The position numbers and the translations under genes are program-made. From the NCBI GenBank assembly GCA_003344405.1, contig NOWV01000016.1, positions 496,001-560,000 of the forward strand: DNA of 64,000 nt, read 5' to 3'. The notes under the pieces are model-generated. The model was not told the DNA's origin. It saw nothing but the letters and a program-made list of their open reading frames with translations, and searched no databases. This document shows positions 4,207-64,000 of this stretch, one piece after another (position 1 is the first letter of the stretch; each line of letters starts with the position of its first letter). Source of the DNA: Trichoplax sp. H2 (lineage: Eukaryota).

Positions 4207-5222
4207 AAAGTATCTTATTCACATTAAGCAAGGTATCATGAGCTGAAATCTTGTTCCAGATTGAATGATACGACTTTACGAGTATAACATCTAGAGATAT
4301 CATTAGAAATAGCCTTCATGCAGCATGGTGTGCTCGTTTGGCTAGTTATTGATAATTAATTATAAAAATCGAATTATGTAGACAGCCAGACATAGATTTG
4401 AGTGTCATAAATTGAACTCTCCATCGACGCAGTTACTAGCTGAAATCTTCTGCCAGATTGAATGATACGACTTTACGAGTATAACATCTATTGATATTAT
4501 TAGAAATAGCCTTCATACAGCATGGCGTGCTCGTTTGGCTAGTTATTGATAATTAATTATAAAAATCGAATTATGTTGACAGTCAGACATAGATTTGAGT
4601 GTCATAAATTGAACTCTCCATCGACGCAGTTACTAGCTGAAATCTTCTGCCAGGTTGAATGATACGACTTTACGAGTATAACATCTATTGCTATTATTAG
4701 AAATAGCCTTCATACAGTATGGTGTGCTCGTTTGGCTAGTTATTGATAATTAATTATAAAGATCGAATTATGCTGACAGTCAGATATAGATATCGACGCA
4801 GCTACTAGCTGAAATCTTCTGCCAGATTGAATGATACGACTTTACGAGTATAACATCTATTGATATTATTAGAAATAGCCTTCATGCAGCATGGTGTACG
4901 CGTTTGGCTAGTTATTGATAATTAATTATAAAAATCTTATTATGCTGACAGTCAGATATAGATTTGAGTGTCATAAATTGAACTCTCCATGAAGTATCTT
5001 ATTCACATTAAGCAAGGTATCATGAGCTGAAATCTTGTTCCAGATTGAATGATACGACTTTACGAGTATAACATCTATTGATATTATTAGAAATAGCCTT
5101 CATGCGGCATGGTGTGCTCGTTTGGCTAGTTATTGATAATTAATTATAAAAATGTAATTATGCTGGCAGTCAGATATAGATTTGAGTGTCATAAATTGAA
5201 CTCTCCATCGACGTTGTTACTA
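4207..5222. repeat. Tandem repeat with a unit of about 197 bp, 5 copies
   Basis: Unit starts agctgaaatctt...gattgaatgatacgactttacgagtataacatcta at about 4241, 4438, 4635, 4808 and 5025. Copies 1 and 5 share a distinct leader (aagtatcttattcacattaagcaaggtatcatg). Confidence 0.96.
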
Positions 5223-15939: not shown

Positions 15940-16351
15940 CTTCTCCTTGCCTTCATTCGTTTCGGTAGCCACTTTTTCCCTTGGGTTAGACTCTTGTACC
16001 TCTTGTTGTTCTATCTTGACAATGTCGTTTCACTCTTTTACTCCGATCGATTTCTTACTCGTTGTAACGGCAGGAATCATCGATCACATTGACAGCACAC
16101 ACAACACATACAAATAGCAACAATCTTTCGTCTCTAATCTGTAAGCAATAAATCAAATGAAGGATTGGATGATAGAACAACGAAGATTGGTGGGGGGGGG
16201 GGGATAGTCGATTGATTGATTGATGTTTCTACGTTCTCCTTGCTGCCACCAAGGCACTCAGTGGGTCTGCCGAGGTTATGCAATCGAGACTGCGTCCAGT
16301 ATGCCACTGGATGCGTACTTGCGTACTCTGAACGCTTACCGTATTGATTTT

Positions 16352-18580
16352 CAGTCTAGTACTGTACTCAGTCGGCTCCAGCTGACGTCTCCGTCCGTAA
16401 TCGAGGTTTGAGTTGCTCGCCATCAGCCGGACCGACGGCTGCAGCGTCATCAGTCCAGTCTACAGTACAGTAGAACTGTACTCAGTCGGCTCCAGTTGAC
16501 GTCTCCGAGGGTTGAGTCTTCCAACCAGTTGTTGGCCATCAGCCGGACCGACAGCTGAGTCATCAGTCCAGTCTAGAACTGTACTCAGTCGGCTCCAGCT
16601 GACGTCTCCGAGACTCCGTCCGTAATCGAGGTTTGAGTTGCTCGCCATCAGCCGGACCGACGGCTGCAGCGTCATCAGTCCAGTCTACAGTAGAACTGTA
16701 CTCAGTCGGCTCCAGCTGACGTCTCCGAGGCTTGAGTCTTGCAACCAGTTGTTGGCCATCAGCCGGACCGACAGCTGAGTCATCAGTCCAGTCTAGACTC
16801 TAGAACTGTACTCAGTCGGCTCCAGCTGACGTCTCCGAGGCTTGAGTCTTCCAACCAGTTGTTGGCCATCAGCCGGACCGACAGCTGAGTCATCAGTCCA
16901 GTCTAGAACTGTACTCAGTCGTCTCCAGGCTCCAGCTGACGTCTTCGAGACTCCGTCCATAATCGAGGTTTGAGTTGCTCGCCATCAGCCGGACCGACGG
17001 CTGCTGCGTCATCAGTCCAGCCATCAGCCGGACCGACAGCTGAGTCATCAGTCCAGTCTAGTACTGTACTGTACAGTATTCAGTCGGCTCCAGGCTCCAG
17101 CTGACGACTCCGAGACTCCGTAATCGAGGTTTGAGTTGCTCGCCATCAGCCGGACCGACGGCTGTAGCGTCATCAGTCCAGTCTAGAACTGTACACAGTC
17201 GGCTCCAGCTGACGTTTCCGAGGCTTGAGTCTTCCAACCAGTTGTTGGCCATCAGCCGGACCGACAGTTGAGTCATCAGTCCAGTCTAGAACTGCACTCA
17301 GTCGGCTCCAGCTGACGTTTCCGAGGCTTGAGTCTTCCAACCAGTTGTTGGCCATCAGCCGGACCGACAGCTGAGTCATCAGTCCAGTCTAGAACTGCAC
17401 TCAGTCGGCTCCAGCTGACGTTTCCGAGGCTTNNNNNNNNNNNNNNNNNNNNGACGGCTGCAGCGTCATCAGTCCAGTCTACAGTACAGTAGAACTGTAC
17501 TCAGTCGGCTCCAGTTGACGTCTCCGAGGGTTGAGTCTTCCAACCAGTTGTTGGCCATCAGCCGGACCGACAGCTGAGTCATCAGTCCAGTCTAGAACTG
17601 TACTCAGTCGGCTCCAGCTGACGTCTCCGAGACTCCGTCCGTAATCGAGGTTTGAGTTGCTCGCCATCAGCCGGACCGACGGCTGCAGCGTCATCAGTCC
17701 AGTCTACAGTAGAACTGCACTCAGTCGGCTCCAGCTGACGTCTCCGAGGTTTGAGTGACTCTACTTGAGTCTTCCAACTAGTTGTTGGCCATCAGCCGGA
17801 CCGACAGCTGAGTCATCAGTCCAGTCTAGATTCTAGAACTGTACTCAGTCGGCTCCAGCTGACGTCTCCGAGACTCCGTAATCGAGGTTTGAGTTGCTCG
17901 CCATCAGCCGGACCGACGGCTGCAGCGTCATCAGTCCAGTCTACAGTAGAACTGTACTCAGTCGGCTCCAGCTGACGTCTCCGAGGCTTGAGTCTTGCAA
18001 CCAGTTGTTGGCCATCAGCCGGACCGACAGCTGAGTCATCAGTCCAGTCTAGACTCTAGAACTGTACTCAGTCGGCTCCAGCTGACGTTTCCGAGGCTTG
18101 AGTCTTCCAACCAGTTGTTGGCCATCAGCCGGACCGACAGCTGAGTCATCAGTCCAGTCTAGAACTGTACTCAGTCGGCTCCAGCTGACGTCTCCGAGAC
18201 TCCGTTAATCGAGGCTTGAGTCTTCAATCCAGTTGTTAGTCATCAGCCGGACCGACAGCTGAGTCATCCATCTAGTCTAAAACTGTACGCAATCGGCTCC
18301 AGGCTGACGTTTCCGAGACTCCGTAATCGAGGCTTGAGTCTTGGATCGAGTTGTTCACCATCAGCCGGACCGACGGCAGAGTCATCGGTCCAGTCTAGAA
18401 CTGTACTTGACGTCCTGTGACCGTTGACGATCCAGTTGAAGTGACCGCTTACCTCCTACCGTATGCATTTTCACTCTAGTACTGTACTGTACTCAGTCGG
18501 CTGCAGGTGACGTCTGCGAACTGCGTAATCGAGGCTTGAGTCTTGGACCCAGTGGTTGGCCGTCAGCCGGACCGACGGAG
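16352..18580. repeat. GC-rich complex tandem repeat (two interleaved unit types of about 100-120 bp), interrupted by a 20-N gap at 17433-17452
   Basis: Shared core tcagtccagtcta(gaactgtac)tcagtcggctccagctgacgtctccgag...gccatcagccggaccgac, with alternative middles gcttgagtcttccaaccagttgttg or actccgtaatcgaggtttgagttgctc. Copies degenerate at both ends. Confidence 0.97.
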
Positions 18581-37468: not shown

Positions 37469-40093
37469 TTATTTAATTGACCAGAAAGTCGTTGGTTTAT
37501 TTTTTGCGTCCCTTTCCCTTTTCGCAAACCCGGAAAACGATGAAATGCAATTTACAATGGCATGTTCAGCTCTGCCAATAATTGCCAGCTCAACATGAGG
37601 CTCGGGGGGATTCAGGCTTACAATTCTAATCTAAAATTTTGAAAGAAATGAACGGTATAATCAGCGTGTTGTTATTTTCCCTAAAAGTCTAATATCATCA
37701 TCATCTGACAGATTAACTCGTATAAGTATCTACGTCCATACCTGCTCCTTTTTAAATTTCTGCTCTAATCTATCTCGTACGCTACTTTCGTCCGTTGCAA
37801 TAAAAACATTGGTAACGTTATACTTTCGGGCAATTCGTTTAGTCTGTCTGAAAATGTCATTTTCAGACGGATAACATACTTTATACGGTATTGGCTTGAC
37901 GTTATTATCTCCATAACACTGTGGCGATTCCATATAATTTTTAGCCTCGTGATCTTTTAAATGTTGGCAGGCCGATTTCTTAAGATGAATTAAATTAAAT
38001 TTCGCAAAATCCACGGTTAGTCTTAGGCTATTATTTGATGGCTTATAATGCAATTCGTTATGTTACTTATAAACATTCAGTCATTGCGTACCCAATCTGA
38101 ACCCATTCTTAAATGAATAGCAACAAATCGCTGCTTATCTAAGGAATCCTTTATGAAAGTCTTTACTTTTCCGGATATAAATTTAGACCATTTAACATAC
38201 TTGTGCAATAGCCGGTCGTGTGCTTTAACCGGAAAATCGCCTGGTGGGCCAGAGAAAGCCATCACTGGGTACTTTTCTGCTGGAAAACTATCATTAGATG
38301 AACCGTAGGTGAAACAGTTTGAATTTGAGCAGTACGTAAAATTAGATAATAACGTTACAATGATAATAGCTAATCCAAGCAATCATATCCAGATTGCTAT
38401 TGTGACATCATAACAAGATTTGAATTTAATTTATTGCAAACTGTATTTACTTTTGATTCCAAGCTGAACGAACGTGCTCATTAAATGAATAATAAGCGTT
38501 GCCACCACCAATCCTATTTCCATACTCTACGTACGATTTGAATTGAATTTCAAAATGATTCCAAAATGGACCAAATGGATTGCCCTCCTTCATTGCACAC
38601 TAAAGTATTAAAGCAATTGCAAAATCGATTCATTCCAATAAGTATTATTACAGTTACTGTAGTGGTCTACTATGCACAACAAAGGCAAAACTTTAATCAC
38701 CGTGATTTTATAAGATTAGAAAAATGAATCATCTTTATAACAGTATCCATACAATATCTCAAGGATATAGTAAATAGAGACCGACATGTATGACTATAAT
38801 ACCTGTTTATTCTCTCTGTAGTAAAAGTATTATTACAGTTACAGTAGTGGTCTACTATGCACAACACAGTCAAAACTTTAATCACCGTGATTTTATAAAA
38901 TTAGAAAAAATTAATCATCTTTATAACAGTATCCATACAATATCTCAAGGATATAGTAAATAGAGACGGACATATATGACTATAATACCTGCTTATTCTC
39001 TCTGTAGTAAAAGCAAAATCCGATCCGTTTGTTGGGTGGCCAAACAGTGGCAGCAAGATTACTCATGAATGTTTCCATGGTGATAACACGATGGTATTGG
39101 CTTAGAGGCTGTACTCGAATATATTTATCGAAAGGAATTTGAACCTTCCAATTTCAATTAAAATAGGCAATATAGTTACCAATAATCAAATGAATCAATT
39201 GCCAAAGCTAGGAAATCCGTTCTATAAGCATGTCATACAGTACAATACTCTACTATATCGTATAAAGATCAATACTACAGTATGGTATTATCAATATTAA
39301 TTTACAGATGTTCCAGGGCTCCATTCAGGGTATTCAACCCATGGGGGTAAAATTAATGTTCTATTCAATCCACGAGAAAATGAGAGAGAGCCTAGAAACT
39401 GATCAGCTTGATTACCCCAGCGACCTAGGATAAGCAAAGTTGATATTAGTATTTGCTAATACACCTGCATTTTTCTAGCTGCAACTTTTTCAATAGGAAG
39501 GATTATAATTATCGAGAATTGACATATCTGTCCAGTAATCCATATTTCAATTCAAGTGTACTGATCGGAAATTCATGGCATTGTACACTTATCATGACAT
39601 GGTAGAGCAATTACACTTGCAGCATGATTGTATAGGCGTATAGTCTATCAAAATTGTCATTTTATTTATAGGTATAATATTGTGATTACTGACTAACTGG
39701 AACGATCGCTTTAATAATCGTGTAATCAATAATAATTGTTAGCTCATTCTGTTGATGCTACTACTTGTCATCAACTGTACACTGTAGAGTACTGAAGCCA
39801 ATGTCAACAAGGTGAGCAGCAGCATGCATTCTTAAACTGATAGTGTTGAATTATCAGCGGGTAGAATATGAACATTTCTTGACACAATCCATACAATCTG
39901 GATTTAATAAGGTAGACTTACCCATACATGGACAGTAGGCAATATATCCGTTTGGATCAATAGCAATAGCTTGACCTACGTTGGCTTGATTGTCTTGATT
40001 CGCTGGATATTGCGTGCAAGAGCCAAAATTGATATCAAAAGGTACCACCAAGTGGATGGTTATCCATATCAAGAGACACTTGTAATAGTGCAT
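37469..40093 (-). CDS. POFUT1: GDP-fucose protein O-fucosyltransferase 1
   Basis: Exons 40093-39922, 39424-39306, 39144-38989, 38599-38451, 38287-38092, 37978-37742, 37630-37469. Motifs: [75 protein letters not shown]. Confidence 0.95.
38641..39012. repeat. Tandem duplication (unit about 185 bp) spanning the POFUT1 exon 3/intron 3 junction
   Basis: agtattattacagttac.gtagtggtctactatgcacaac...tataatacctg.ttattctctctgtagtaaaag occurs twice. Confidence 0.93.
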
Positions 40094-55600: not shown

Positions 55601-56614
55601 AATAAAAACATTTGAAGAATGTAGATTTGTCGCACAAACGCCATTTTTGGCTCACAAGCAGTGAAGGATAAGAATGACTTAAAAACACTACAATTTTATA
55701 TGATTATAATTATTTATAATCTTTAATTTGGAAGATAATATTCAATCCAGTCAGATTATTATAAAGCCAATCGAAATGCTGAAATTTAGTATGGCAACAT
55801 TTATTGGTTTAACGTTTTAATAAGTGAAAAATTTGTAATTGAACTTGTGCTTAATTATGATTAATAAGAAGGGAATTCACTATCTTCAACATATATTACT
55901 GTTGCCAATCATTATTATAAGGGAATATTATTTTAGCACGGCTACATTCCATTAAAAACTGCTTACATGACAATACTTATTTTACCCAAAATACTAACAT
56001 CATCAAAGAGCTACTTTAAAACAGTTATTCCTATAGTTACGATAGGTCACCAGTAAACAACTTAATTAACAGATAGAAGCTAATTCATAATTATAAGACT
56101 AACTATACGAGCGCATTAAATGATATACCACTCAATTACGCAAAAAACACACCGAAGCAAATTATTTAAGAGATTAAACAGCAAAGGGGAAGATTAGCGT
56201 GAAATCTATCTGTTTGTTACTGGTTAGATTAACGGACTAGTATTCCAAATAAGAATCTATTAAAGTGCTTCACTAAGTTATCCTTTCTGCCCAAGCCAAA
56301 ACAACATCCTAACAGAAAAGAAACGGTAAATATTTTCAGGTAATTTTAAAGGATATTAGGAACTTATACAGTACGTTATCATACATTAATGAACAGATCA
56401 ATTGAAAATCTATGTTTAAAAATAAATTTACTTTGGAGTAAAATCGTAAAGAATACGCCTGTTACGTATTACATGTTTTAGTATTAAAAGAGGTCGTAAA
56501 ATATGACTGCCATTGGATTAAATGATACCGCTTCTTGCGATTAAAATCAATTTAGTAAACCTCTAAAACTCCAGATACAGTATTGTAACAAGGGACACCT
56601 ACAACAGCAGTCAT
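52671..56614 (-). CDS. Uncharacterised protein, possibly Myb/SANT-like DNA-binding, with a low-complexity middle and C-terminal coiled coil
   Basis: Frame-consistent 3' exons 54365-54287, 53984-53487, 53272-53114, 52912-52671 (…GKLLELDRLMG…EQEERRLKFEIELQNYRQMREETRYQDERRYQET…LLQS*). The 5' exons are tentative (56614-56561 MTAVVG…, DVVLAWAE near 56300, NNDWQQ near 55910, VTESITG near 55530) and not fully joined. Confidence 0.5.
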
Positions 56615-57068
56615 GACATAAAAATTGCACAGTCCTGTAACGTAACTTAGTATTGGATTGTAGATTATTAGCCATTTTCAGTATGAAATACGGTATAGTA
56701 GCTTTCAACACTTATCATAAGCCTTTTTTAGTAGCCTGTAGCCATAGATTGTAATTGAAGATTCTATGTTAGAATACAGGTGACTATATACTGTACTGTA
56801 CAGTAGGGTGTTAAGTCACTATAGATTCTAGAGACAAAAATAGATATGTAACTCATATACTAGGATATGGTTGGTTCATCGTACTTTGGCTGGTAAAAAT
56901 AATGTCTACGTAAATACTGCAGCAGTTACCATATTAGATTATATAGATAGTCCGCTGTTAAACGTTGTTACTAATAATAATCTGAATAACTGTAAAATAA
57001 GGTAGAATGTTGCTATGCAGATTATAGCTGTCAATGCTACGAAGAGTATTCAAGTAGGCAACTTTAGC

Positions 57069-60000
57069 TTATTCAGTACTTCTGTCTAAAAGTCTTTCTA
57101 GTAATTGTATCCAGGTAGAATAGAGCTGTGCGTAGATTAATTATCTTTGCGTAAAGATCTAATAATTTTCTACAAATTTTGAAATTTCTTAATCGGTTTT
57201 ATCACATGTCCTAACTTGCAATATCAAATAGATCACTTACATTCCCTTGTATGAAAGCGGTTCCCACACCTGTTGTCGTGTCAGTTACTGAGGAAGAAAA
57301 AGATATGACCATTACATTCTATTTACATGGCTTTTTAGTAGATTGCTCGTGTATTTATAATCTCGATAATACTAATACTAATCGAATCATTTTATTTCAC
57401 TACGATAAATTAGTACATATCCAAGAAGCGTAAGTAAATGAAGTTTAAGGCCAAACAAATCGCCTAAATCTTCACTTGTACGGTAGTACTTTAGACAGGA
57501 ACAAATCTATTCAAAGTGCGTTATTATAGCTTACTTGCTGAACGAATTTTGATGACGATTATAATAAATATCCGAGTAGAAAAGAAAGCAAATTTTAGTA
57601 ATACTGTACATAAGGCTTGCAATCTTATATAACTAGTAGTTTCGTCGACAAATTTAAATTTAAAGCAGTTAATAATCCAATAAATAATAGATCAATAAGA
57701 AAATTTTCAGTTTTTGAAATTAAGGAATACAAATTTTATCGACATAAACGTTATTTCTAGTTACACTTACCTGCTGTAATATTTTCAACATTAGGACGTT
57801 ATCGGAAAAGGAAAAAAATCATAACGAATGTTAGATTAAGGAATATTCTATAATTTACTTTTGACTGGTCAACGTCGGACCTTTTCAATACTGTATTAAG
57901 TGCATAATATGATTCAACTCACTATCTCTGTTGTAACATTGTGTGCTTTCATTGGCGCTTTTCCTTTCATAGGGGGTTGTCCTTTCATAGGTGGCTTCGT
58001 CCAACTGAGGGTGATAAACGAAAGCAAAATTAATTAGTTCCATATTGAAAAACTGGTTTACACAATTACCTTTAGAGTATAAATTGAAAGATTTATTAAT
58101 ATGAGTTTTGTGTAATATTTATGACCATTCCGACTCGAGTTTGTAATATGATGATATAATTATATTATTCCCTATGATATAGAAGGTACCGGTACTGAAG
58201 CCATTCGTCTTTATATTATTACAACTAATTGCTAGAATAGCTATTGCCGGTAATTGCAGTATAATAGTTTTGATAGTCAGTACCTTTAGGTTATTGTCAC
58301 ATAACATACAAAACAACTATCACAATTGAATTTAGCTAGCAATGTTTTTGTATACTGCTGATATGCAGATATTACACAGTGGTATCCTACGATGTAGTCA
58401 CCGTTAATCTTATAAATCAAGACAAATTGTAATCCTCTAGAAAACTACTATAATCCCAAATAATCTGTAGAGAAAACTTATTGATGAAAACAAGAGCGCA
58501 AAGCATAGCATAAATATCAATATTTACCCGCTATTGTGCAATAAGGTTGCAGTAGCCATGAAAAGAGTGAAGAATAACATAATTAGTAATTCCTTATTGC
58601 AAAATGATAAAATTTTTTCCGATATGTTATATAACTAATTCTAATCTATAAGTATTTAATATTTGATGATAGCAATGATATCACTGATCAATTACAAATA
58701 TATCAAGTGCAAAGCATCATCTATTAATACTAACGTAACCATCGATATATTTAATTGGTGCATGTTCTACGATTACATCATCAATATCGCATTTAACTTT
58801 GATGATCTAAATATATAATTGCATTACTAGTCCACGGCATTTGATTAAATTGATGCTTTCTACGAATAGGTTAGGGGTAGTAATGTAATGAATTACTCAA
58901 ATATGCAGTGTCTTTATACATGCATATTAGTGATCTCATTTAACTAGTTACATTATGAGTACTCACAATCTGGGTTCCAGGAATTGAAATTTATTTGAGT
59001 GATGATTTGAAATTAGAAAATTTAACAACTTGTAAGAATGAGACTTTACGTTTCCAAGACTTAACGTAACATTAAGACTACTACCATACATTGCTGTTGC
59101 TGGTACATGTTATTACATGATTACTAGGTACTTTATTCAGCTAGTAATAGTAACAAAGTATACCATAAACGCATAGCCTATGTTACTTACTTCCTATATT
59201 ATTGTAAATTCGCAGTGCGATAAAATTATCGACAAAAACCAATTCCAAGGTCGTCCGAAAATGACCATGTGAGGGGAAAAAATTGGGAGTATGTCATAAA
59301 AGTATTATAACAACTATGAAATCTATGCTACTATGCTAGCTATTGAGATAACAGAGTATGATCATTATATTAGAGTAGGCATGAAATTATAAAAATAAAA
59401 TCGCAAATAACTTTAACATCGTTTCACAGCTGTGCCTATTTGACGTACGATTAAGTAAAATTAAGACTAACAATTATGGAATTAAGTTCAAGATTACTAC
59501 CTTACTAATGTCATAGTCACTCATGAAATGATTTATCCTACTAAGGTTATACAATACTGTACCATTACACGTATTTCTCGATGGGCGCCGAGATAAATAC
59601 AGTAGATAGATTTTAATCGTGTATTGTAGATGGTAATACCTTCATACAATACAGCAGTCTCTACACTACTATAAATAAGATTACCATTCATTGCCGAATG
59701 ATTACTTATACTATTCCGTATGTAAAAGATATTATCTAAATCAAAATAGTTATTGACATAGATTATGTAAGAGATATCATTACTACTTTGTATTAACTGA
59801 AAATTTACAACCGCTTTCATTTCTTGATATATTATCCAGCGACATTACAACGAAGAAATATAATCGTTATTTTTTAAGTGACTAGACATCTACGTTACTT
59901 ACCGGCTGCCATATCGTCGAAGGATGCGTGAAGTAATTAGCGAGAACGGATAAAAATTTAATACAACCAGTACTAACAGTTAGCAACAATTTGCTATAAA

Positions 60001-63000
60001 AGCACAAACATAGAACTTCTATATGTAAATCTACATAAGTACTGCCGTTAAATATTCTAAGCACTCATAAACTGCAGTATATAGACTATCCTAAATAGTA
60101 TGCTTGTTTTTATAAATAACCTAATTCTCATTGGCGAACTATTGCTATCATTACCAAATTTAAAATTAACTTGATTGGTATTATCATGTACGTAATGCTG
60201 TACATAACTATCTACATAATACTTGAACATTATCACTATATTGGTCGTGGCTATAGCATAAGATTTAGAATGCAACGCTCCAACCATCTATAATAACTGT
60301 AGCATTTTAATAAGTCAAATGACCGACTTTCTTTTATACTCTGATATCAAAAAGTCGAATACTGTATACTTTTTACTAAACTCAGGCAAATACAATGTAC
60401 TATGCAAGACCTAGTATAACTTCTTTACTAGATGCATCATAACGATTATCACGTACAATTTTACAACCATTTTACTTACCACCTTTAATTAGCATTCATT
60501 CATGATTAATTATCGAAACAGATAAATATAAAAATGATGAAAGAAGCAATTTTTAGTATACAAATACAACAATCATTTGACTAATAATGACATATTAAGA
60601 TTGACATATTTCAACCACTAACTCTATTCTAACGTAGACAACCAATTTGCTATTAACATATCTAATACAAATTTGCCTTTAGGTTAACTTTGCATACTCC
60701 ACGAAATTAAATAAAATAGTAAATCTTAAGACTGATCACATTTGTAATAATAGTAGATAAATCAGCTTACTTACTTTCTAGATTTTATTCGATAAGCACA
60801 TACGAGGATTGAGAATTAATATGGAAGAAAATGAGTTAAACCGACAAAATCAGAATACAAAAGCTTCCTTATATTGAAAGAACTGAATAATTCACTCTTA
60901 AGTAAATAATGTCGTCTAACATATATATATATAATTTGTAGTAGTATCCTGACCAAAATTGGTGTAAAATTTTCTATTATACTTACGCCCTATATCGTAC
61001 GTCAAAAGCCAAATACATTTAGATTTGAGGAATGCGGAATATGCAAATGCAAAATTTCCAGTTATTTAGTACAAAGTAAGTAAGCTATTATCCTTTATTT
61101 TTTACAGGTATATCGCCATATAATATTGCTGTTATAGTAAATATTCCGTCAAAATTTACTTATTGTCAATTAATAGGATTTTTAAATTAATGTTATGTAA
61201 CATTCATTTTTATTACAAACGCTATAGTTCAGTAAAAAAAAGTGCTGTAATACTATAGTCTACTGTAGATTAATTCATTGGATATATACGTACCATCTAT
61301 CGGTTTTATTCGTAACAGAGCCGAGAAAGTTGAAAGAAAACAATAGAAAACAAGATTGTAACCATTACTTCAATTTTGAGATTCACTGCAGAGCAGTGGT
61401 ATGTAAAGATTTATACAGTCACTAATTTATAGCAATCGCTAGCCATACGTAAGAGTACTTTATAAAGAATAGTTAATCGAAATGGAATTAAAAATTAAAT
61501 CCTTTAAAGCTTTAATTATTTGCTACATCATATAAGTGTCATCTGCGCATATATCCGATTAAACTATAACAAAAAATTCAAAATATTTTTTCGGTAGCTG
61601 TAAGTTAGCTTGAACAGTCATAAACGTTTTCAAACTTACAATCTATTGGTAGATTGATCGTGTAATTTTCACGGCAGGATTGGAGAAAGAGTGTAACGAA
61701 AGTATAAATCAAAAATAGGCGAAGTGGTTAGGATATGAATATAACTCCTTCTCGGGTCACACAACCTCCTCTTATGGTATCTAATTTGCTAATAATATTT
61801 CAGCTCAGACAATATAGTACTTAATGGATAGTTACAGTATATCATATTATACCACTCCGCTGGCGTATTGTTCACATAACACATCAAAATTTATTATTTC
61901 CAACACTAATGACACGAAGCTGACAAAAATAAAGACTACATGTGGCATGTAAGAGATGACCTTGCGTAGATTTACGAGAGACAATTTATAACCAATCTCA
62001 CTAAACACATCTCTAGTGCTACGTTATCGTAACATGATAATTCGTATGTATAGGTAGGTGTTACGAAGCCTCTGAGTCATTTCATGTAAGACGATTCTAT
62101 CAACCATGCTCTACCAATGTAGGCTAGATTATATTCCATTATTAAGATCGATCCTTCGATGACTATTCTACCTACTTTCTATAAAATATCATTTAATAAA
62201 AAATCAGTAACAATTAGTACTATCAAAACTAATAAAACAATAACTTTAAACGAGATTAGGGTGAAGTTCTAGTACCTGTATATAATAACTATCGAGGACT
62301 TCTAAAAGTCCTCTTGAACTTATATACAGTATGACATAGTACACACTGTGATATGTAAATGTACATAATATGCAATGATGAAAACTGCCTAAATATCAAT
62401 TTTTTACTTTAATGAACAAAAGCTTCAATAATCTACCACTGATAACGTATATTCTGTCAACGTCAATATAAGCTTACTTCCTAAAGAATTGCGTCCAATG
62501 CCACCACGATTGCAATATTGCAATATTACGAAAATAAGAGCTCAAGATCAGTATACATTACTTAGGCCATAACATTGAAAATTGTAAATACAACAAATTT
62601 ACTATTACGAACTTTGTACAACAATACAATCAAAGTGATTTTGTAGCTACAGAAGCTTCATTTTATATTGATTTGCCTTAATTATGTTAATTAAAAAAGA
62701 CATAATGAATCTGAAGTATCTATTACACAAGATTACAGCATAGCTAGTCAGATATAGATTGACTGCTAATATCCTTTCAACCAGTCATCAAACTATAGTT
62801 TTTGGCTATATAAATTATATAATATTTCGAAAGAATAACAGTAAATCATATAGTAATTAATTACTTACTTCCTAGAATTTCCAAAGGTGACGTTATTTAT
62901 TAAAAGGGAATAAAAAAAGCATTCTGTTAGCTTGTATAGCAGTTAACGGATAAATCTTAAATAAGAATAGAATTACATATAATTTTGCAATCCTATCTAG

Positions 63001-64000
63001 ATTAAGTTTGCTTATTACAGTATGCTATGCATCATAAAACAATAAAAATAAATCATAAATTACAATATTTTACAAAAGAGGTATTAGACGTCTATTATAC
63101 AGTATTTAATCGTACAAGTACATTACAAGGTATCGCAGGAAGAAGTATAGAGGTTAATCAAATTGATGTTACGTATCCCATTGCAGATCTATTCTTTGTG
63201 AATTACTGCATTTCATCACATATCATATCCCATATCCGCATATTTATTCATAAATACACTATGCATACAGTATATCGTATTCACTTTCATAGATAAAATC
63301 TACTTACTTGCTGTTATGATTGCCCAAATTTAAAGGTAAGTAAACGGTTGATGTATAATTTATTGCAGAGACAGACACACAAAATAAAGTTAGGAATGTC
63401 AGTACAATACTTTTACATTAAATTATACCACATCCGTGAAAATCTTTGCCCAAAAAAATCAAATTTAGAATTCATTATAACTTACTCGCTAAATTTTCAT
63501 ATTCCATTAGTGATCAGAATTTCATAAAGGTAAAGGAAAGATAATAAAATCTTATCGTCAATATCAGTATTTATCAGCGATTGTACCACATAGTTTCAAG
63601 CGATTAACATAACACTATATTAACGATGATATCCACTTCAGGCGTTCAACTAGGCAACATATTACTTTCTACCAATGCAATAATACTACGGTAGATCCTT
63701 TATGACGTACTATTATTAAATATACAGTATAATATTGACTTAATAACAAATTTCAACAAGAAGATTCGTTAATCATTCGTGATATTAAATAATATCCAGA
63801 ATCACTTTATGTGCCCAGTGAAGTATTATCGCTCCACTTACAATATCGTATAAAGATTGTGACTGCAAGTCTAACCTAGTGATACTTAAACTTAAACATG
63901 TCGTTTAATGCTATGTATAAACTAAAGAGAAGTATGCTATAGATAGTCATCGTAGAGATGTAACGCAAAGCATTCACATGATCAACGATAGTACTTACGC
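57069..64000 (-). CDS. 3' part of an uncharacterised micro-exon gene (array of 3-nt exons); continues beyond the window
   Basis: About 17 AG-NNN-GT units plus larger exons 63862-63842, 58004-57923, 57287-57241, 57125-57069. Concatenation gives an open frame ending LYSTWIQLLERLLDRSTE*. Confidence 0.6.

Follow-up and report, generated by a model that had tools for sequence, protein, structure and literature searches.

Micro-exon genes (MEGs) of the flatworms Schistosoma mansoni, Echinococcus multilocularis, and Hymenolepis microstoma are the closest known kind to the gene reported here, which lies on the minus strand at the right-hand end of a 64-kb window (the whole stretch of 64,000 nucleotides that was analyzed, from contig NOWV01000016.1) of the placozoan Trichoplax sp. 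H2. The comparison with MEGs draws on parts of three published accounts (10.1101/2020.04.08.031872, PMC4350168, and PMC10526429). According to those parts, the exons of S. mansoni MEGs are mostly 15 bp long, the body text giving a minimum of 6 bp and the abstract a range of 3-81 (PMC10526429), and MEGs are described as apparently limited to platyhelminths (PMC4350168). Microexons of only 3 nucleotides (nt) are on record as isolated cases in the portions drawn on of three further papers, namely, micro-Ex8 of homothorax (hth) in Drosophila and exons of RPS24 and MAP4K5 in humans (PMC7392893, PMC12207440, and PMC8632122). The Trichoplax locus is, very probably, a well-expressed gene in which a stretch of the mRNA is built from at least 16 consecutive 3-nt exons. 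About 48 nt of mRNA is contributed by these separate exons, which are divided from one another by ordinary GT-AG introns, and each unit has the same architecture: an AG is followed by three bases and then by a strong donor of the U1 type, in most cases GTAAGT and often GTAAGTAA.

For the triplet array, the whole minus strand of 57400-64000 was read. All 17 triplets named in the original prediction, which had been made from the sequence alone, are present at their minus-strand positions, each flanked by AG on the 5′ side and GT on the 3′ side. Twelve of them carry a GTAAG donor, as had been counted, and the donors of the other five are GTAATA, GTAGGT, GTACGT, GTGAGT, and GTAAAT. Motif density was measured within the 64-kb window. 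On its minus strand, the pattern AG-N(k)-GTAAG occurs 17 times at k = 3 and 0-5 times at each other k from 0 to 15, and the plus strand has 2 sites at k = 3. Thirteen AG-NNN-GTAAG sites fall on the minus strand of 57400-64000 (one of which is an overlap artifact of gtaagtaag at 60773), compared with a mean of 0.33 (standard deviation, 0.58; maximum, 3) in 1,000 dinucleotide-preserving shuffles of the same region, which agrees with the earlier rough expectation of fewer than one. Seen from the donor side, 13 of the 16 GTAAG sites in this region have an AG at spacing 3, and any other spacing accounts for 0-1 sites. On the minus strand outside the gene, an AG stands at spacing 3 before 4 of 57 GTAAG sites, which is the chance level. 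The density typical of random intergenic DNA that would have spoken against an array was thus not found. When GT[AG]AG sites are counted on the minus strand of 56-64 kb, 17 of 20 are donors in the gene model. The triplet pattern is thus real, strand specific, and confined to one locus within the window.

Splicing of the triplets was assessed in four sequencing runs aligned to 56500-64000 (X4, X5, X11, and X1). All RNA evidence consists of assembled contigs, not reads, and the loose ends of the contigs were examined for their first 30 letters each. X4 and X5 are random-primed RNA-seq on record, both from one study; X11 comes from a second study and is presumed to be RNA. X1 covers the region colinearly at a depth of about 100, is DNA-like, and has no joint inside the array. 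Since the evidence is made of contigs, stretches without X4, X5, or X11 cover (e.g., 60516-61519 in X4) are uninformative. The concatenated string that the original prediction proposed to look for in RNA is present, in the predicted order, in three runs that represent two studies: contigs of X4, X5, and X11 contain 16 of the 17 triplets, and the chain is joined to an 82-nt exon and to the exons downstream of it. In X4 and X5, contigs ending on the 82-nt exon carry ten triplets past 58005, checked one by one (58528, 58967, 59191, 59903, 60480, 60775, 60987, 61294, 61640, and 62176). An X4 contig is unspliced from 59191 to 60482 and then runs through nine triplets (60775, 60987, 61294, 61640, 62176, 62478, 62869, 63308, and 63486), and a 366-nt X11 contig links 59191, 58967, 58528, the 82-nt exon, 57771, 57535, and 57287-57241, followed by 160 letters of the last exon.

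Six joints were found in the gene (60777-60987, 60482-61640, 62178-62478, 58004-59191, 58005-59191, and 57287-57923), and all six have CT..AC ends on the plus strand, corresponding to minus-strand introns of the GT..AG type. Depth is 248 (X4) and 303 (X5) in the bin that contains the 82-nt exon versus about 5-18 in the introns, a contrast that fits abundant spliced mRNA plus some precursor. Lack of transcription on the minus strand, which had been named as grounds for abandoning the original prediction, is contradicted by the joints. Partly processed molecules are represented as well. In X5 contig 26, the intron between GGC and AAA is gone and both adjacent introns are retained, and spliced chains occur together with retained introns of the same locus in X5 contig 25 and X4 contig 16. 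Because neighboring introns are retained in such contigs, we conclude that the introns are removed independently, with no fixed 5′-to-3′ order. Joints and chains together support the central claim of the original prediction, an extreme micro-exon gene made of serial 3-nt exons.

At least 20 exons of the gene, all on the minus strand, lie inside the window, and the 16 RNA-verified 3-nt exons form runs of 14 and 2. In transcript order, the first unit is a candidate 3-nt exon, TGC (64001-63999), which straddles the window end and has a GTAAGT donor at 63998; the AG directly before it was seen in the genomic continuation of the X4 loose end at 63989, in a contig running past 64000. This unit indicates that the array and the gene extend beyond the window. 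The next exon, of 21 nt (63862-63842), was originally predicted from its splice signals (acceptor ttgcag and donor GTAAGT); no spliced contig across it was found within the loose-end letters examined. AAA (63668-63666) is a candidate 3-nt exon with a weak donor, GTAATA; it is put forward from its sequence signals and was not among the first 30 letters of the loose contig ends.

The verified exons begin with CGA (63488-63486; donor GTAAGT), the outermost triplet of the chain in the X4 loose end at 60482 (27 letters). The same loose end contains CAA (63310-63308; GTAAGT), GAA (62871-62869; GTAAGTAA), and a second GAA (62480-62478; GTAAGC), and the last of these is connected with AAA (62178-62176; GTAGGT) by the X4 joint 62178-62478, which skips 299 bases. 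This AAA also appears in the loose ends at 60482 (X4) and 58005 (X4 and X5). ATT (61642-61640; GTAAGT), found in the loose ends at 58005 and 60482, forms one side of the X5 joint 60482-61640, and the 9 letters between the sides of that joint hold ATG (61296-61294; GTACGT), GGC (60989-60987; GTAAGT), and AAA (60777-60775; GTAAGTAA), each of which recurs in loose ends. GGC and AAA are, in addition, the two sides of the X5 joint 60777-60987, which skips 209 bases with both neighboring introns kept. GTG (60482-60480; GTAAGTAA) is the other side of the joint 60482-61640; it is found at the end of X4 contig 16 together with the upstream chain and in the loose ends at 58005. CCG (59905-59903; GTAAGTAA) is 3 nt long in the loose ends at 58005 and 6 nt long, as in a variant allele, in the X5 loose end at 58004. 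GAA (59193-59191; GTAAGTAA) is reached by the X4 joint 58004-59191 and the X11 joint 58005-59191 as well as by loose ends, and ATT (58969-58967; GTGAGT) is contained in the letters between the sides of both joints. The run ends with CGG (58530-58528), an alternatively included exon with a weak donor, GTAAAT, which is documented by the X11 joint and by X4 and X5 loose ends.

The 82-nt exon (58004-57923) has joints on both sides and the highest depth of the locus. It carries an internal repeat (D12) of three imperfect copies of an 18-nt unit (57946-57999), which gives a six-residue repeat in either open frame. It is followed by the second run of triplets, CAG (57773-57771; donor GTAAGT) and CAA (57537-57535; GTAAGC), which together make up the 6 letters between the sides of the X11 joint 57287-57923 and are also present in the loose ends at 57923 (X4 and X5) and 57287 (X5). 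A 47-nt exon (57287-57241) with a GTAAGT donor at 57240 is supported by X11 contig 10 and by the loose ends at 57923 and 57240. At the latter position, the loose ends of X4 and X11 (median lengths, 255 and 160, respectively) match window positions 56307-56278 and thereby place the last exon at 56308-56100, of which 56100 is a nominal limit. This exon follows ttag and includes the stop codon TAG of frame 1 (56275-56273), with the 3′ untranslated region after it. The terminal exon had originally been predicted near 57125, but this was wrong, as the contigs of both runs go from 57241 to 56308.

All 19 modeled introns start with GT and end with AG and are thus canonical U2-type introns. Their lengths, 149-709 nt, do not come in multiples of three, and their GC content is 25-36%. 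Among the 16 verified microexons, 10 have a GTAAGT donor, which in five of the ten is extended to GTAAGTAA. The exon side of the donor is off the usual consensus, with G as the last exon base in 5 of 16. The 25 nt before the AG contain 52% pyrimidines, equal to the region overall, and there is no polypyrimidine tract. No 4- to 6-mer was commoner near the microexons than in random intron windows, and UGC was not enriched upstream of them, occurring within 20 nt in 4 of 16 versus 3.0 at random and within 40 nt in 6 of 16 versus 5.2. Auxiliary intronic signals were accordingly rejected, and the UGC counts do not bear out the analogy with SRRM3/4-dependent microexons that had been drawn from the sequence. 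No common repeat was found in the introns of the array beyond the junction core (repeat family D1). Because the introns are alike only at this core, there is no sign of a recent tandem duplication or a mobile intron, and an origin of the array by either route was rejected.

How such exons could be spliced is suggested by these features. Intron definition is the pairing of splice sites across short introns, which would make exon length irrelevant. We suggest that the array is spliced in this way, with each short intron recognized as a unit, in which case an exon would need no minimum length. U1 normally pairs with three bases at the end of the exon and six at the start of the intron. In the array, the U1 site would therefore span the entire 3-nt exon and touch the acceptor AG, and because of this contact the introns on either side of a triplet are probably spliced out in succession. 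Binding energy that an arbitrary exon half cannot provide may come from the strong intron half of the donor, which may also compensate for the missing polypyrimidine tract. The only triplet found skipped, CGG, has the weak donor GTAAAT. With such an architecture, one residue could be added, dropped, or gained through small splice-site mutations, the remaining protein being unharmed.

Two kinds of variation were observed. CGG is part of the X11 joint, which has 5 letters between its sides, and of the loose ends of X4 and X5 at 58005. It is absent, by skipping, from X4 contig 16, which has 3 letters between the sides, and from the loose end of X5 at 58004. Skipping of the other 15 microexons was not found in the contigs examined. 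The second X5 form, in which CGG is skipped, has three extra letters adjoining CCG, and no AG-CAA-GT exists in the window between 60480 and 59905 that could supply them. Their source is seen in the X4 and X5 contigs with retained introns, which differ from the window by C>T on the plus strand at 59906 and 59910. These substitutions abolish the AG at 59907-59906 and create an AG at 59910-59909, so that the acceptor shifts 3 nt upstream and the unchanged donor closes a 6-nt exon (59908-59903) in place of the 3-nt exon (59905-59903). Through two substitutions at an intron edge, the mRNA of a natural allele thus gains three bases. As both spliced forms occur in X5, the sampled animals carry both alleles or strains. 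The X4/X5 allele also has two base differences in the 47-nt exon (57241-57287; about 4%), read by eye from loose ends; in the same comparison, the introns around this exon differ by about 0.5-1% and the 82-nt exon is identical. The two differences could mean that this part of the product evolves fast or that the region is untranslated. It had been proposed that skipping of any unit would preserve the frame and allow combinatorial variation of single residues. The preservation of the frame is supported by the one skipped triplet and by the 6-nt allele, but skipping of many units was not seen.

If each triplet is taken as a codon (frame 1), the reading frame extends over 78 open codons, which run from the 21-nt exon to the TAG in the last exon. 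A second open frame had been noticed from the sequence, and it is indeed open for 51 codons, with a stop at the first codon of the exon at 57287. Its product would be lysine rich, with a proline-methionine-lysine motif that is repeated three times and is encoded by the 18-nt repeat within the 82-nt exon. The RNA is most likely protein coding, because the units all measure 3 nt and the variant 6 nt, so that no change in length shifts the frame. Frame 1 is our cautious choice for the coding frame, frame 2 has a lesser though appreciable chance of filling this role, and there is a small chance that the transcript is not translated. Database searches were made with both frames. The 77-amino-acid (aa) stop-to-stop frame around the 82-nt exon had no match among proteins of 42-135 aa or 136-2,000 aa, and an exact 29-mer of this exon gave 0 matches in metagenomes. 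The 39-aa reading in frame 2 gave 10 weak matches (E values of 6e-10 to 9e-4) to proteins of 456-5,430 aa, with identities of 43-50% where given and mostly several matched stretches per protein. These are probably matches between proline/lysine-rich repeats, not homologues.

Several points weigh against the interpretation of the locus as a protein-coding micro-exon gene, and most of them are shared with the strongest of the other explanations, in which the RNA is non-coding or the gene hosts an intronic element, and the 3-nt spacing is a mechanical optimum of the placozoan spliceosome. No database protein contains either frame of the 82-nt exon, and translation is deduced from the rule of three. 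Frame 2 is open in addition to frame 1, and third-position A+T (0.66 versus 0.63) does not separate the two. The gene has its 5′ end outside the window, past base 64000, and no start codon is in view. Both allelic differences in the 47-nt exon fall on first codon positions and are non-synonymous in frame 1, and the exact spacing of 3 nt could partly be a mechanical preference of the splicing machinery rather than a coding constraint. On the side of the variation and the RNA, one skipping event and one allelic change were all that was found, so the variation is not combinatorial, the contigs give no isoform proportions, and X4 and X5 share one study. A non-coding RNA or intronic host is nevertheless unlikely. 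The 16 units have a uniform length of 3 nt and the variant one of 6 nt, frame 1 is uninterrupted over its 78 codons and three more exons until the stop in the last exon, no Rfam family matched at gathering score anywhere in the window, introns included, which led us to reject structured RNAs, and the likeness of the introns ends at the junction core.

A very unlikely explanation is that the AG-NNN-GTAAGT sites are waypoints of recursive splicing, by which an intron of about 6 kb is removed stepwise with the three bases as an incidental by-product. The core motif does resemble the ratchet points of long Drosophila introns, as characterized in the parts of two papers drawn on here (10.1101/006163 and PMC8605326), in that an acceptor adjoins a GTAAGT-type donor and removal is stepwise; partly spliced intermediates are present at the Trichoplax locus, and its triplets encode mainly charged or polar residues with no obvious motif. 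However, as described in those parts, ratchet points are zero-nucleotide elements of very long introns that leave nothing in the mRNA, whereas the Trichoplax array has short segments and a spacing of 3, and three bases are kept. An AG joined directly to GT with nothing retained is not the arrangement of the array: an AG stands at spacing 0 before only 1 of the 16 GTAAG sites in 57400-64000, against 13 at spacing 3. The triplets are kept in the mature RNA of three runs, and it was for the case of their absence that the original prediction had offered recursive splicing as the alternative. Moreover, the sub-introns of 149-709 nt belong to a 6-kb interval that is too short to need subdivision, and units that are all 3 nt, with an allelic variant of 6 nt, point to a frame constraint. 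Chance or artifact, whether a composition effect of AT-rich DNA (about 30% GC) or a chain misassembled or derived from another locus (the RNA evidence being assemblies, not reads), has a negligible probability and is already refuted as far as the present data go, since 0 of 1,000 shuffles exceeded 3 sites versus 13 observed, the remainder of the window is at chance level (4 of 57), and the chain recurs in several contigs of three runs and two studies, physically joined to retained introns of the locus.

The window, which has about 29-36% GC outside a few GC-richer stretches, also holds animal housekeeping genes in pieces: TFIIB, an RRM protein, a GDP-fucose O-fucosyltransferase, PTPA, a GH47 mannosidase, and a steroid 5-alpha-reductase-like protein. 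A TFIIB exon has 99% identity to the TFIIB of Trichoplax sp. H2, which places the window in the Trichoplax lineage of placozoans, and 60-79% identity to the next named matches. A GC-rich satellite at 16350-18400 (about 53% GC versus about 33% for the genome) lies directly upstream of the TFIIB gene; it has a unit of about 103-110 bp with higher-order periods of about 220 and 457 bp and contains an N run. Young tandem duplications are present at 4241-5208 (units of about 172-218 bp, 2-3 copies, 94-95% identity) and 38640-39013 (186-bp unit, 2 copies, 95% identity). In the 3′ flank of the micro-exon gene, an X1 contig skips 164 bases at 56671-56836, probably owing to an indel polymorphism or a repeat, and the X1 depth climbs to about 7,500 at 56751-57001, pointing to a dispersed repeat.

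Either of the complexes that recognize splice sites has a footprint larger than a 3-nt exon. One such exon is a curiosity, and sixteen in a row are more than that: they indicate that a natural spliceosome is able to assemble a coding stretch codon by codon without an exon-definition signal. For splicing research, the array is a natural substrate for asking how an adjoining acceptor and donor are read in turn. For evolution, it places a micro-exon architecture outside the flatworms, in one of the earliest-branching animal phyla, and captures, in a living population, how an acceptor shift adds a codon. In genomic terms, it is a well-expressed gene that is invisible to open reading frame finders, gene predictors, and standard spliced aligners, and neither frame of its largest exon is present in the protein databases searched. 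A bolder reading, which we put forward tentatively, is that placozoans independently evolved a hidden class of micro-exon genes from single-codon exons and that this locus is the first of many missed by annotations. On the same tentative footing, the spliceosome might routinely accept back-to-back 3-nt exons set by AG-NNN-GTAAGT alone, and codons might be born, lost, and resized by one or two point mutations in introns, as in the 59906/59910 allele, the products possibly being secreted or signaling peptides.

Among published descriptions, we found no consecutive or tandem arrays of 3-nt exons in the literature outside supplementary exon-length tables (e.g., Table S10 for H. microstoma), which were not covered. 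For placozoan microexons, the only case found was a 1-bp exon of mitochondrial cox1, the supplementary gene-model tables for flatworms and placozoans again not being covered. The best-ranked matches of a literature search included nothing on micro-exon genes in non-bilaterians, and the 2023 placozoan cell-atlas paper nowhere mentions microexons or splicing.

Microexons that are themselves 3 nt long provide one comparison. As far as the cited parts of the reports on hth, RPS24, and MAP4K5 go (PMC7392893, PMC12207440, and PMC8632122), these are genuine spliceosomal 3-nt exons that each add one residue, like those of Trichoplax, but they occur singly or as at most three microexons of mixed size in otherwise normal genes, whereas at least 16 stand back to back in Trichoplax. 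The neuronal microexons of bilaterians that depend on SRRM3/SRRM4 (eMIC) share with the array very short, frame-preserving exons. To our knowledge, the eMIC domain is specific to bilaterians. The array differs from this program in that UGC is not enriched upstream and a polypyrimidine tract is lacking, and placozoans have no neurons.

The comparison with flatworm MEGs goes further. On the parts of the MEG accounts used here (10.1101/2020.04.08.031872, PMC4350168, and PMC10526429), both have many tiny exons divisible by three, much longer introns, and larger flanking exons; in both, skipping alters few residues and keeps the frame (one of the 16 Trichoplax microexons is skipped); and both have been overlooked by gene finders and RNA-seq aligners. 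The Trichoplax locus falls within the operational definition of a MEG given in the section used of the H. microstoma genome paper (10.1101/2020.04.08.031872). There are also differences. The Trichoplax gene is placozoan, that is, from outside the Platyhelminthes, and homology to a MEG family is not seen: searches with the two frames of the 82-nt exon yielded no related protein, and hence no similarity to MEG families. In view of this lack of sequence similarity, we regard the likeness as convergent. MEG products are defined by a signal peptide and secretion, whereas the 5′ end of the Trichoplax gene lies outside the window, and two of its larger exons, those of 82 nt and 47 nt, have lengths that three does not divide. 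The exons of flatworm MEGs, as far as the cited text goes, are mostly 15 bp, whereas at least 16 consecutive exons of the Trichoplax gene are uniformly 3 nt. The architecture would thus seem to work like that of a flatworm micro-exon gene taken to its limit, and what is new is MEG architecture reduced to single triplets, in a new phylum.

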